This document shows positions 14,379 to 52,377 of a stretch of DNA of 64,000 bases, piece after piece (the stretch's first letter is position 1; each line of letters begins with the position of its first letter). Below the pieces are notes generated by a model. It was not told the DNA's origin. It was given only the letters and a program-made list of their open reading frames with translations, and searched no databases. The stretch is from assembly GCA_951406725.2 (NCBI GenBank), contig OX597822.1:81406001-81470000 (forward strand), given 5' to 3'. The position numbers were made by a program, and so were the translations under genes. The stretch is from Octopus vulgaris. Taxonomy: Eukaryota.

Positions 14379-16583
14379 CTATGCTGAACTAGAGAGATGT
14401 TCTTTATCTATCTCCTTAACTTCTTGGAGATTTTAGGCATAATTATACTAATGTGTCCATCTGTTCTAATTTAATTAATTTCTATTAATTTCTTTTTAAT
14501 TCTATCGGAGGCGATCCATTCGCTTTTAGTTAATATATATATATATATGTGTGTGTGTGTGTGTATGTATATATTATGTATGGGTATGTATATATGCGTG
14601 TGTATTATACATGTATATATACATATAAACCATGTAGCAGAAGGATACACAAGTGCTTCAAACATGCACACACGCATGCTGGCACACATAAACAGATATA
14701 CATACATATATATATGTGTGTGTGTGTGTGTGTATGTGTGTGTGTGTGTGTGTGTGTGTGTGTGTGTATATATATATATATATATATATATATATATATA
14801 TATATACACATATATATATATATATATGTATGTATGTAATGTATGTATGCATGTATGTATATATACATATATATATGCATGTGTGTGTGTGTATGTATGT
14901 ATAAGCATGTGTATATGTATAGAAAGTGAGAGAGAGATAAAGCAATGCGACCGATAATTCATCCATCGTGGTTACTCAACGCACTCTTGCCGATAATAGA
15001 AAATCGTCAGACAACATCTTTTATTCAACAATATTTTTATAAAACTATTTTGGAAAAATTTATGAACAATAGAAATATAACAAGGAAAAATTTGTGACTA
15101 GCAGAAAATAGAACGAAATTAGATTGTAGAGCTGAGAGATCAATATTTTAACAATAGGAAAAAGGGAAGTGAACACATCAACAACAGAAGGAATTAATAA
15201 AAGAAAAGAAGTGAGAGCAAGAAATAAGAGATATGAAAAATAAGAGAAGCAAAGTACATCTGTCAGCATATTTTTTGTAATATGTATGCCGTTAACCATC
15301 TAAAGGTTATATGGCCATCTTCATAGGTGTTTCTCAAAGTATCTGCATTTCCAGAAAATCTCTTGTCTAGTTTTCAAATAAATGTTATTGTCATTTAAAT
15401 TTTGGATTTATTTGTTTTGTTTGTGATTTGTTCCTGTTTTTTGAGGATTCATTATTTCTCTGTTGTAAAGAAAAAGATCTTTTTCTTTGTTCTTCAATAA
15501 TTACCTATTTAATGTTGTTGTTAACTTCTTTTCTTTAAATACCCAGATGTACGAATTTGCTACTTATGTCTCATGTAAATATAACAGATGTACGACTGTA
15601 CATTGTTTGCTTGAACTCCCCATAAGTCGAGAAATGGGTATTGTTTACATGCCTAGTCGAAGTTTCGTCTTACAGGGGTAACATCTGTTTCGTAAATTAT
15701 GGCTTGTATATCGCAACTCAATTGTTCTGCTTAGGTGTGTGAAGTGCCCAAGTATGTGGAGTACTCAGCCATTAGAAAGTTAATTCCACGAGTACGCTGT
15801 TCCGTTGATCGGATCAACTGATGCACTAGTCGTAACAGGCATAATACCAGTTCAGAGCGAGTGACTGTGTATTCCGCAAACACATATACCTTTATCAATA
15901 TCTTCACGCAGAGTCAACGTGAAAGGGTGCCACGTGATTGAACCATAGAATTACAGGTACACTCCATCCCTCCAGGCTACGATACAGTTCCGCCTAATGA
16001 ATTGCAGTCAAAATCATTTAGTCAATCAACATCTTGATAAAGGTCACTTCCCCAGCTGGCTGCGCCATGGCCTCGAACGCACTGACTCCTTCTTGCGAAG
16101 CGAAATTCTTCTCCACACAGCCATGACTTTGTCCATATAGTGAAAATATGAACACATGCGTGTCCGCTCATATTGAGACACATGCACTTGTATTTCCATC
16201 GACATTGCAAAGTGAATGCTTGCATGGTTCCACCATTCCATACATACACACGTCTACACCTTAAACATATGCACACTTATACATGCATAAACAAAAAGAG
16301 TACGCACACACACAAAAGCATATACAGATATACATATATGCATATATATATATATATATATATATATATATATATATATATATATATGCATATATATATA
16401 TAAGTGTATGTATGCATGCATAAGTATATTTATGCATATATATGCACCTATATATATTTATATATATACATACATATATATATATATATATATATATATA
16501 TATATATAGTAGGTCCCGGGTTGATTCGGGGTTAACCACAGTAAATAAGGTACTCAATACATAGCAGAGTAAAATTAATTTAT

Positions 16584-16701
16584 TATATAGAAGGAGCTTC
16601 TACAGGACTAGAACTGTTTCATTCAAGAGAAATCTGAAGAGCTTCCTGAAGATTTCTCTTGAATGAAACAGTTCTAGTCCTGTAGAAGCTCCTTCTATAT
16701 A
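16584..16701. repeat. Perfect 51-bp inverted repeat with a 16-bp spacer
   Basis: 16584-16634 is the reverse complement of 16651-16701; the cassette is flanked by (TA)n arrays. Confidence 0.95.
16639..16691 (+). ncRNA. Type I hammerhead ribozyme motif
   Basis: Stem I GAGCTTC/GAAGCTC; core CTGAAGA; stem II T-TTC-TCTT-GAA-T; GAAA; stem III ACAG/CTGT with loop TTCTAGTC; GUA triplet, predicted cut after 16684. Confidence 0.8.
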
Positions 16702-16724
16702 TATATATATATATATATATATAT

Positions 16725-17090
16725 TACTCTTTACTCTTTTACTCTTTTACTTGTTTCAGTCATTTGACTGCGGCCATGCTGGAGCACCGCCTTTAGTCGA
16801 GCAAATCGACCCCGGGACTTATTCTTTGTAAGCCCAGTATTTATTCTATCGGTCTCTTTTGCTGAACCACTAAGTTACGGGAACGTAAACACACCAGCAT
16901 CGGTTGTCAAGCAATGCTAGGGGGACAAACACAGACACACACACACACACACAAACACACACACACACACACACACATACATATATATATATATACACAT
17001 ATATACGACAGGCTTCTTTCAGTTTCCGTCTACCAAATCCACTCACAAGGCATTGGTCGGCCCGGGGATATAGCAAGAAGACACTTTCCC
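16725..17090 (-). mobile_element. SINE family A, head truncated
   Basis: Reverse complement of family A body and tail. Confidence 0.88.
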
Positions 17091-18917
17091 AATATATATA
17101 TATATATATATATATATATATATATATATATATATATATATATATATATATATATATATATACATGCATATATGTATATACATACACATATATATATAAA
17201 TACATACATACATATATATATACGTACATACGTACGTAAAATATATAGGGTAGCGAGTCTTTCTTTAGAAATTTCACTACCACTGGCCTACCTTGAATAA
17301 AAAAAGTCAATAGACAACATATTCTCAATATAAAATAGTGTACATTTAAACACAAGAGAGGCAGCTTCTCTTGTGTATAAATGTACACTATTTTATATTG
17401 AGAATATGTACATACATACATATATATATATGTATATATATATAAATATATATATATATATATATATATATATATATATATATATATATATACACACACA
17501 CATATATATATATATATATATATATATATATATATTTGTATATCTATGTATACGTACGTAGGCATTAAATGTATACACTTGCCGGTTAAAACGCTTTCGA
17601 GTTTTCAGAAAATCAAAGAGTACCTGTCAATTTTACATAGCTTTCACATGAAAACACCAAAATTCACATGCACACACAGTCGCGCATGCGCAGACGCCGA
17701 CATGACAATATACATGCATAGAGCTTTGTATTTATCTATGTGTAGATTTGTGCATATGTATGTAAATATATGTTCAGGTGCATGTCTGTGTTTGTGCGTG
17801 TATTACGTGGTGGTGGTGATTTTTGGCGTGATTTCTGTTGTGTTTTTATTGTTGGGGTGATGGTGGATGTGCTTATGTTGCTTTTGTTATATACGTGTAT
17901 GCGTGCGTATGTTTTTGCATAAACATATATATATATATATATATATATATATATATATATATATATATATATATATATATATATATATATATATATATAT
18001 ATGTATGTATATATATATATATATATATATATATATATATATTATATACATATATATACACCTATACATGCATATATAGAGAGAGATATGCATTAATATA
18101 TATGCGCACATATAAACTCATATATATATATATGTGTGTGTGTGTGTGTGAGTGTATTATGTATGTATATATATATGAGTGTGTATATATATGTATGTAT
18201 GTATATATATATGTATATATAAATATATATATATATATTTATATTTATATTTACATTTATATTTATATATATATATATATATATATATATATATAGACAC
18301 ATACAGAAATACACCTGCCCACAGAAATAATATATGTATGTATATGCATACATACACACATATCTAAATACATACACACATGCATACATACATACACACA
18401 CACATACATACATACAAACAAACAAACATACATACATACATACATACATACATACATACATACATACATACATACATACATACATACATACATACATACA
18501 TAGCTTTTGTTCCATGTCTCCCAAATAACAATGGACTAGCAGAGTTATTGTAGTTGGCCATTCAGATGACATAACAATAAATTTCATGAAACGATAAACG
18601 AGACGTCTGTCTGGTAAACAATACATGAGAAACCTGTTATTAATATTCTGGCTATGAAGAGGGCGGTGGATGGGCAGAAGCGGTGTAAAACCACCAACAA
18701 AATGCCATTGTGTTATTTCGTTACGATACTTGACATTTTGAGTTCAAATTCTGCTACTTGCCTTTTATGGTACTCAAGTTGATAAAGTAAGTACTAGTTG
18801 GTTAATTTGATAAAGTAAGTACAAAACAACATCAGTATATCCAACTAGCGACAACTTCATTATCATCATCACTACCATCGACTTTATAGTTCTCCAGAAA
18901 AAGTTACCATTGTCTGG

Positions 18918-19240
18918 ACTGGCTGTGTGGCAAGAAATGTGCTTCTTAACCCCATGGTTCCATGTTCAGTCCCAAGTGTCTTCTACTACAGCCTCGGGCC
19001 GAATAAAGCCTTGTGAGTAAATTTGGAAGGAGGAAACTGAAAGATGCCCGTAGTATGTGTGTGTGTGTATTTCTCTCCACCACCACTTGACAACTTGACA
19101 ATTGGTGTGTTTACGTCCCTGTAACTTAGCGGTTCAGCAAAAGAGATCGATAGAATACTGGGGTTGATTAATTCGACGAAAATTCTTCAAGGCGGTGCCC
19201 CAGCAGGGCTAATGTTTTGTGACCGAAACAAGTAAAACAT
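18918..19240 (+). mobile_element. SINE family A, diverged
   Basis: TGGCTGTGTGG head and CAAGGCGGTGCCCCAGCA...GAAACAAGTAAAA tail. Confidence 0.8.
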
Positions 19241-51580: not shown

Positions 51581-51623
51581 CCACTACAAATGTTTCATGT
51601 CTGCTCCGACAATCTTCAGGTGG
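51581..51623 (-). ncRNA. Minimal type I hammerhead motif (left arm)
   Basis: Exact reverse complement of 51679-51721. Confidence 0.75.
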
Positions 51624-51678
51624 ATTTTCGATCTTCTAATCAGTATCAAAATTTGATACTGATTAGAAGATCGAAAAT

Positions 51679-51721
51679 CCACCTGAAGATTGTCGGAGCA
51701 GACATGAAACATTTGTAGTGG
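51679..51721 (+). ncRNA. Minimal type I hammerhead motif (right arm)
   Basis: CCAC-CTGAAGA-T-TGTC-GGAGCA-GACA-T-GAAAC-ATTT-GTA^GTGG; predicted cut after 51717. Confidence 0.78.
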
Positions 51722-52082
51722 CGGTTTATTTAATTTATATTAAAATTTTATGTATTGATTAAGTCTTTCCTTGTTTGGTTTTAAAATAGTGGTTTTGTCT
51801 CGAATTATATTATATAATATTTTACTATAAAATTGGATTTAACCCTAAATCTGATTTTTCCCTGTAATTTTGGATTCATTCCCTAATATTTATTATATAT
51901 ATATATATATATATATATATATATATATATATATATATATATATATATATATATATATATATATATATATATATACATATATAATAACAAAGGGTAAAAT
52001 TAATTAATTAAGAAGTAATTAATAATTTCACCAAGTAGAATTCTGTATGAAAAAAAGGACCATTTCACGGTAAGTTTAAGTA

Positions 52083-52377
52083 ATACTAATAAAAAGGGTT
52101 CAGCAAAGATTTGCTTCACCACGCACCGAAGTTTAGAAATAGCAGCCAAAAATCTTAGCTACTTCTTCTACTTTAAAAGAGGGTCTCCCGGAGAAACCAA
52201 AATACTTGAAGATAATTCACACAAGCAGAGAGTAAAGCAATGAAAATCAATCAATATTTTGGTTTCTCCGGGAGGCCCTCTTTTAAAGTAGAAGAAATAG
52301 CTAAGATTTTTGGGTGCTATTTCTAAACTTCGGTGTGTGGTGAAGCAAATCTTTGCTGAACCCTTTTTTATTAGTAT
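52083..52377. repeat. ~125-bp imperfect inverted repeat with a ~40-bp spacer
   Basis: 52083-52209 versus 52251-52377 with a few mismatches; the right arm ends in (TA)n. Confidence 0.92.

Follow-up and report, generated by a model that had tools for sequence, protein, structure and literature searches.

The question raised by this locus is what kind of element leaves short, non-coding inverted repeats that lie among (TA)n microsatellites and carry hammerhead ribozyme (HHR) motifs. The locus is a 64,000-nucleotide stretch of Octopus vulgaris DNA (assembly GCA_951406725.2, contig OX597822.1, positions 81,406,001 to 81,470,000 of the forward strand), referred to here as the window, and it harbors four inverted-repeat cassettes, named A (16509-16701), D (50070-50525), B (51486-51893) and C (51983-52377). 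A previous sequence-only reading had regarded these as several families of tiny non-autonomous retroelements mobilized in trans. Based on sequence comparison, it is proposed that A and B are, with high probability, head-to-head copies of the pseudo-long terminal repeat (pLTR), or 5' leader, of Penelope-like elements (PLEs), and that each palindrome may have arisen when both target strands primed synthesis on the same sense RNA (twin priming), a reading to which we assign a probability of roughly 0.55.

Inverted-repeat cassettes and their genomic copies

All four inverted repeats were recovered by self-BLAST, with arm identities of 93% (A), 99% (B), 87% (C) and 76% (D). The layout previously described as common to A, B and C was borne out by self-BLAST and by the sequence itself, (TA)n being present on both sides of each cassette and one arm being approximately 73-100 nt longer than the other. 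No open reading frame (ORF) of at least 120 amino acids (aa) was found inside A, B, C or D, in agreement with their supposed lack of coding capacity. The flanking arrays, as read from the sequence, are as follows:

16479-16508, no strand: (TA)n array left of A
16696-16724, no strand: (TA)n array right of A
51445-51490, no strand: (TA)n target array left of B
51893-51978, no strand: (TA)n array between B and C
52375-52421, no strand: (TA)n array right of C

A descriptor scan located complete type I HHR geometry at five places in the window (+16646, +51683, -51619, -27656 and +2753), of which +2753 is a poor match and both +2753 and -27656 lie outside the cassettes, compared with 0.17 HHR cores per Markov-shuffled window (n = 30 shuffles). 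Complete HHRs, which the sequence-only reading had ascribed to both A and B, were present in both B arms and in the short right arm of A, but the long A arm is cut 5' of the CUGANGA box; similarly, the D inverted repeat exists as claimed, but holds only broken HHR halves. The Rfam check suggested with that reading failed to recover a hammerhead among the best 150 of 386 matches in the window, where microsatellite and hairpin matches swamp the E-values. Single-strand folding of the HHRs against shuffles gave z values of -0.72, +0.76, -2.43 and -0.29, being better than shuffles for D only.

Copies were searched for in the 2.8-Gb genome (227 contigs), the loci examined being top-scoring matches rather than a random sample. 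First-look candidates, which represent lower bounds, numbered 571 for A, 1569 for B, 2898 for C and 227 for D, so that the arms are multi-copy as had been anticipated, and the best identities among the 40 candidates scored per family were 98-100% (A), 99-100% (B), 90-97% (C) and 74-82% (D). A 33-mer of A had 59 exact matches versus 0 for a control. The palindromes are genuine sequence features, and the families to which they belong are repeats of high copy number.

Cassettes A and B resemble the leaders of coding elements

The features of cassette A, with identities given relative to a master element (locus L299), are as follows:

16505-16635, minus strand: A long arm, from pLTR +11 to the long end (+141), including a tail of ~73 nt, without the CUGANGA box (97.7% identity)
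16640-16701, plus strand: A short arm, from an A (+1) resembling a transcription start site (TSS) to the short end, into (TA)n (96.9% identity)
16639-16691, plus strand: A type I hammerhead motif from the descriptor scan, with a 7-bp stem I, core at 16646, 4-bp stem III and predicted cut after 16684

Among 30 loci retrieved by protein search, two of which could not be oriented, the same ATG was directly preceded by a complete A arm and tail in 19. In the master element, the cassette start sequence AGCTTCC has a TATAAA box ~29 nt upstream of it, and a 713-aa ORF opens with an ATG at +183; the A element accordingly has a 182-nt leader and a 2.14-kb ORF, the 3' untranslated region (UTR) excluded, and the longest open frames of this compact element extend up to 722 aa. 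A few A copies run beyond the tail into the reading frame. Of the 8000 matches scored, 1081 are homologs of the A protein at E <=1e-20, with ~40% identity over the full length.

The corresponding features of cassette B, located by sequence comparison and, for the hammerheads, by the descriptor scan, are as follows:

51486-51650, minus strand: B short arm, spliced form, HHR core at 51619
51652-51893, plus strand: B long arm, spliced, comprising the exon 1 end, junction 51669|51670, HHR, short end and a tail of ~80 nt
51679-51721, plus strand: B minimal type I hammerhead motif, with 4-bp stems I and II, a near-palindromic stem III and predicted cut after 51717

A whole B element of more than 4.5 kb was found at locus L219, where pLTR, tail, an 822-aa frame, 3' UTR, promoter, exon 1, intron and 3' pLTR follow one another, the 3' pLTR stopping at the short end. 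The B arm and tail lie ~60 nt upstream of the first Met of the 822-aa frame, which contains an Asn-rich insert and a frameshift near its end, an intact C-terminus being present at L211. The arrangement of arm and tail directly before an ORF of reverse transcriptase (RT)-endonuclease type, in the 19 A loci and at L219, speaks against the earlier view of A and B as non-autonomous families, and the arms of A and B are 97-99% identical to the leaders of such ORF-bearing masters. An RT frame beside a B copy at L019 was considered as a further parent link and rejected, the junction being chimeric.

The A and B proteins both contain RxxW[RK], DKT, YRDD, CxCx5C, YIG, CxxC and CxH (RIRWR with DKT in A, RIKWK with DKT in B), and lack CCHH as well as a cysteine pair between GIY and YIG; in A, YRDD occupies position 347 and YIG position 603 of the 713 aa, and B shows the same order. 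The Hydra clade is defined by an RWK motif, the change of DKG to DKT, a CxCX5C linker, the absence of CCHH, and CxxC and CxH around conserved E and N, its members having (TA)n targets, HHRs and a generally short length (<3 kb), and the supplement includes an Octopus member, Hydra-1_Obim (PMC8557442). Compared by eye, both proteins are close to the published Hydra alignment rows; a Neptune label was dropped, as the Hydra definition fits instead. The A and B parents thus appear, from their motifs, to be autonomous PLEs of Hydra-clade type, and the window cassettes, which lie head to head and not as the ORF-independent tandem units that characterize retrozymes, are most simply regarded as leader-only insertion products of these elements. 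The idea of Penelope-linked, HHR-bearing and (TA)n-targeting retro-insertions of several unrelated families is upheld, and pLTRs attached to RT and GIY-YIG-type ORFs, as the sequence-only reading had envisaged, were found for A and B but, in the loci examined, not for C or D.

Two observations concern related coding elements. Locus L292 and many other matches of the protein search represent an additional Hydra-like family, probably very young, in which dozens of 727-aa frames run without interruption; L298 carries an 806-aa frame between inverted HHR-bearing repeats. The B ORF (L211, L218 and L219) possesses a long Asn/Lys-rich insert between RT and endonuclease, resembling the N-rich inserts reported for Adineta Penelopes in PMC3846280.

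Paired ends and splicing state of the arms

Families A, B and C each have two fixed 3' ends, 70-100 nt apart. When 30 A loci were taken by an internal pattern, a sample chosen regardless of ends yet selecting for copies that reach +1, 28 were two-ended cassettes and all 28 paired a long with a short end (one of the remaining loci lacked a second arm and the other continued into the ORF); the short end was on the pattern arm in 16 of these cassettes and the long end in 12. In the pooled and de-duplicated head-to-head pairs, long+short pairing was seen in 54/54 for A, 40/40 for B and 15/18 for C, the whole-cassette A and tail-anchored B samples being selected for one or both ends. Both ends touched TA in 54/54 (A), 39/40 (B) and 14/18 (C) pairs, versus a background of 5-6%. 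A subfamily variant was common to both arms in 24 of 25 A cassettes.

Family B provides a second marker. Among 30 tail-anchored B copies, 14 start at arm position 7 or less, nine are truncated further 3', and seven join at position 17 to an AT-rich tract ending in TTTTAG. This tract belongs to a GT..AG intron, in which the exon 1 end GATTAGAAG is followed by GTATG, 1260-1326 nt, and then TTAG with exon 2; in window cassette B the exons are joined exactly, the 1.3-kb GT-AG intron being missing. Of 23 B arm pairs, 18 were spliced/spliced, three intron/intron and two cut at the junction, and none was mixed. A promoter was present in 0/58 spliced B arm contexts, compared with 21/21 donor-intact contexts that had been found with a promoter-containing query.

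These features do not readily fit MITE-like (miniature inverted-repeat transposable element-like) DNA transposons with terminal inverted repeats and a TA duplication, nor fold-back artefacts of assembly or sequencing, to which short, AT-rich, palindromic and TA-flanked cassettes might otherwise be attributed. Exact intron loss, the link to RT-type ORFs and the asymmetric fixed ends are contrary to a MITE origin. Loose ends were present at the long A end in contigs of four independent runs, in three of which they are TA-rich, and at the short end TA loose ends were present in three runs; this speaks against an artefact of assembly. This explanation is largely refuted and is considered extremely improbable.

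Proposed route to the palindromes

Formation of the A and B palindromes may be envisaged to begin with an RT-endonuclease that would cut both strands of the (TA)n array, the two target 3' ends then priming reverse transcription on one RNA, one at each internal start site. For priming in the upstream leader, the start sites would lie only 60-260 nt from the cap, and cDNAs of 60-260 nt would end there. Both cDNAs would extend toward the 5' end, one jumping onto or annealing to the other at a short palindrome (AGCT in A, and a GAATTC-centred sequence in several B copies), and fill-in would yield the asymmetric inverted repeat. The exact splicing of the B cassettes means that the template was a sense RNA, and because the A and B arms run through the HHR, it would have been uncleaved. 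Fold-back of a short cDNA is excluded as the source of the tail, since such a cDNA cannot supply it. In the in vitro work of PMC11167929, both strands were cleaved and extended by a PLE protein, which began synthesis at two internal positions flanking the tail and took uncleaved RNA as its template.

Twin priming competes with a route in which the pLTR origin is likewise of Hydra type, but a cDNA from the long site folds back at its 5' end and the endonuclease trims at the TA-rich short site. Such fold-back, which appears unlikely though worth serious consideration, would account for the long+short pairing and for the identical arms, and the short ends of all three families lie in TA-like motifs, which fits trimming. 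It predicts, however, an intact 5' end on the long arm, whereas among 23 A cassettes the short arm reached further 5' in 15, the long arm in five, and the two were equal in three. An antisense-template form of fold-back, moreover, cannot yield exactly spliced arms.

It is also conceivable, although we regard it as distinctly improbable, that the short A and B palindromes are non-autonomous elements, each transcribed as a fixed unit and copied anew in trans. The many A copies with one common centre and length, the 1569 and 2898 first-look candidates of B and C, and the existence of non-coding tandem units (C and a 271-nt array of A, described below) would be in keeping with this. The common A centre, however, stems from a query-biased sample, cassette centres vary widely with the tail on either arm, spliced cassettes occur without a promoter, and the close identity of the A and B arms to the leaders of ORF-bearing masters is contrary to independent units.

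Several points weigh against the reading favored here, i.e., twin priming on leaders of Hydra-type parents. Agreement between arms also follows from fold-back or from later gene conversion. In addition to the selection in samples and query stated above, three of 18 C pairs were not long+short, and one of the 18 spliced B pairs is a cross-pair of two neighboring cassettes (L021). Pfam and PDB sequence searches with the A and B ORFs gave no RT match or only spurious ones, for which reason the RT assignment rests on the motifs and the published alignment, and a GIY-YIG Pfam match was obtained in only 3 of 70 homologs. A search of 60 C loci gave no linked ORF, and neither a C nor a D arm was present in 20 loci with Hydra-like ORFs, so that these loci yielded no autonomous partner for either family.

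A broader formulation of twin priming, advanced here tentatively and at somewhat less than even odds, would regard Penelope inverted repeats with a one-sided tail as the footprint of obligate twin priming, in which both cut target strands are primed by one RT-endonuclease complex, each at its own site on the same capped and spliced sense RNA. Upstream-leader priming would then mass-produce promoterless ribozyme palindromes, the "retained" PLE intron would represent an unspliced downstream-pLTR copy, and the 271-nt A array would be a retrozyme born from a PLE by deletion.

Families C and D and a tandem array of A units

The arms of C and D in the window are as follows:

51982-52257, minus strand: C long arm, covering positions 13-287 of the family's non-coding 577-nt tandem unit, beginning 13 nt past the predicted HHR cut (91% identity to L086)
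52251-52377, plus strand: C short arm, unit positions 61-187 (sequence comparison)
49983-50325, minus strand: D long arm, with the 3' end of an intron-like tract (TTTAG), an HHR core at 50273 with a mutated triplet, and a tail that ends at (ATT)n (77% identity to L131)
50317-50528, plus strand: D short arm, beginning inside the HHR, without CUGANGA (self-BLAST and sequence comparison)

Copies of C consist of a head-to-tail 577-nt unit with one HHR, 35.5% GC and a longest stop-free frame of 89 codons; the window copy is without an HHR, the family HHR ending ~13 nt upstream of its start. The tail-to-start junction was present in 6/30 and 16/30 loci in two samples, and C was found mostly as one or two units with PLE-type inversion and tail. 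In the first sample, which selects against downstream ends, 13 of 30 5' ends were located between -3 and +19 relative to the predicted cut, the window copy beginning at +13; another 13 lay further upstream and four downstream. This cluster hints that self-cleaved templates may have been used; RT stalling at structure is an alternative. Four of 90 C and D loci had protein matches nearby, with linkage shown for none. Family C is retrozyme-like and is likely mobilized by an autonomous Penelope-like element.

Cassette D reaches ~49983 and is asymmetric, its long arm ending in the (ATT)n tract and not in (TA)n. The arm with the core has GAA at the cleavage triplet, and the other arm has the triplet but is without CUGANGA. 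An acceptor-like TTTAG is located just before the D HHR (window 50297-50305, minus strand, and loci L122-L150), which suggests that D may have a leader intron as in B. Family D is an old family, a relic for which no partner was found in the loci examined. Of the stem covariation that the sequence-only reading had called for, a weak trace was seen, with one compensatory pair in stem I of C (GC 21, AU 6 of 29) and one in D (CG 12, UA 9 of 27), both of which are probably single inherited changes.

Units of A also occur in tandem, with 26 forward units of ~271 nt (9 + 17) on contig C8 of the genome at ~91.4766-91.4834 Mb (loci L330 and L217). Each unit comprises the leader with HHR and tail, 46 nt of the ORF, and the promoter; the array is headed by inverted units, terminates at the short end in (TA)n, and displays a higher-order variant pattern among its units. 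By its composition, this array appears to be a PLE-derived retrozyme that arose by deletion, an origin already proposed for retrozymes (bioRxiv 10.64898/2026.07.22.740005). The notion of non-autonomous elements mobilized in trans survives for C, with no linked ORF seen among 60 loci, and for this tandem derivative, but not for A and B as families.

Relation to known elements

Inverted pLTRs, one-sided tails, (TA)n targets and hammerheads are published PLE traits, and the layout of the cassettes is known PLE anatomy; A and B would be new members of a known clade, accompanied by one retrozyme-like family. The fixed long and short arm ends, and exact splicing with matching arm states, go beyond published traits.

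With the Hydra clade (Craig et al. 2021, PMC8557442), the present elements share a C-terminal endonuclease (EN+), HHRs, (TA)n targets and inverted, 5'-truncated pLTRs with a one-sided tail. They differ in their longer tails (73-100 nt here, 30-40 in Hydra) and in the abundance of leader-only palindromes, and B differs further in its 1.3-kb leader intron, Asn-rich insert and length above 4.5 kb; the A and B proteins, compared by eye, also differ in sequence from Hydra-1_Obim. Two RT start sites bounding the tail are likewise found in the Poseidon element PAc of Anolis (Frangieh et al. 2024, PMC11167929), whose cutting and extension of both target strands, with uncleaved RNA as the main template, has its counterpart in the proposal for A and B. 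PAc belongs to another clade, however, and the A and B sites are in the 5' UTR before the ATG; inverted repeats are left unexplained, and long+short pairing is unreported, in the portion of that paper available.

Metazoan non-LTR (non-long terminal repeat) retrozymes (PMC7229834; bioRxiv 10.64898/2026.07.22.740005) share with C and with the 271-nt A array a non-coding tandem organization, a low GC content and a single type I HHR per unit. The 577-nt C unit exceeds the reported 150-450 nt, and the 271-nt A unit falls within that range. The TSS and intron within the pLTR, with the intron ending by the HHR, are shared with Drosophila virilis Penelope and Adineta vaga Pen (PMC4209133, PMC3846280, PMC8557442), as are the TCACT initiator-like site, junction palindromes and Asn-rich ORF inserts. 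While intron retention is stressed in those papers, spliced and intron-retaining retrocopies coexist here.

The origin of inverted pLTRs, the reason for the tail and the sense of the template are stated to be open (PMC3846280, PMC8557442, PMC11167929). Whether PLEs use a sense or an antisense template is left open in PMC3846280, a question on which exactly spliced palindromes bear, as they require a sense template. Our literature search returned no paper on long+short pairing, PLE twin priming or these families, the D. virilis Penelope papers and Repbase entries, which may describe spliced copies or these families, lying outside its scope. Families A and B are young (copies 98-100% alike) and offer hundreds of natural products with splicing as a per-molecule marker and two fixed ends, by virtue of which the models become separable by counting. 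In genome annotation, palindromes of this kind belong under PLE leaders and not under MITEs or microRNA hairpins; Pfam overlooks the parent ORFs. The compact A element with its long open frames is suited to in vitro work.

Other features of the window

A fifth minimal type I hammerhead motif, outside any inverted repeat, is located at 27620-27662 (minus strand), with a 6-bp stem I, a palindromic CTAG loop III and a GUC triplet. Near-perfect palindromes lie at 14197-14378 and 17317-17409, one with a (TA)n centre and the other an AT-rich hairpin by a TA tract, and the descriptor scan found no HHR core in either. Loci L251-L279 represent a further TA-flanked family with inverted copies, to which the window hairpin at 37310-37393 is similar by eye. 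On the minus strand, a 617-aa frame at 40955-42808 is presumably a LINE-like (long interspersed nuclear element-like) RT, and a second fragment at 56171-56542 is taken by us to derive from a mariner-like transposase. Finally, a Hydra-type linker and endonuclease fragment is present at 63655-63920 (plus strand; tblastn E 5e-9 versus the A protein).

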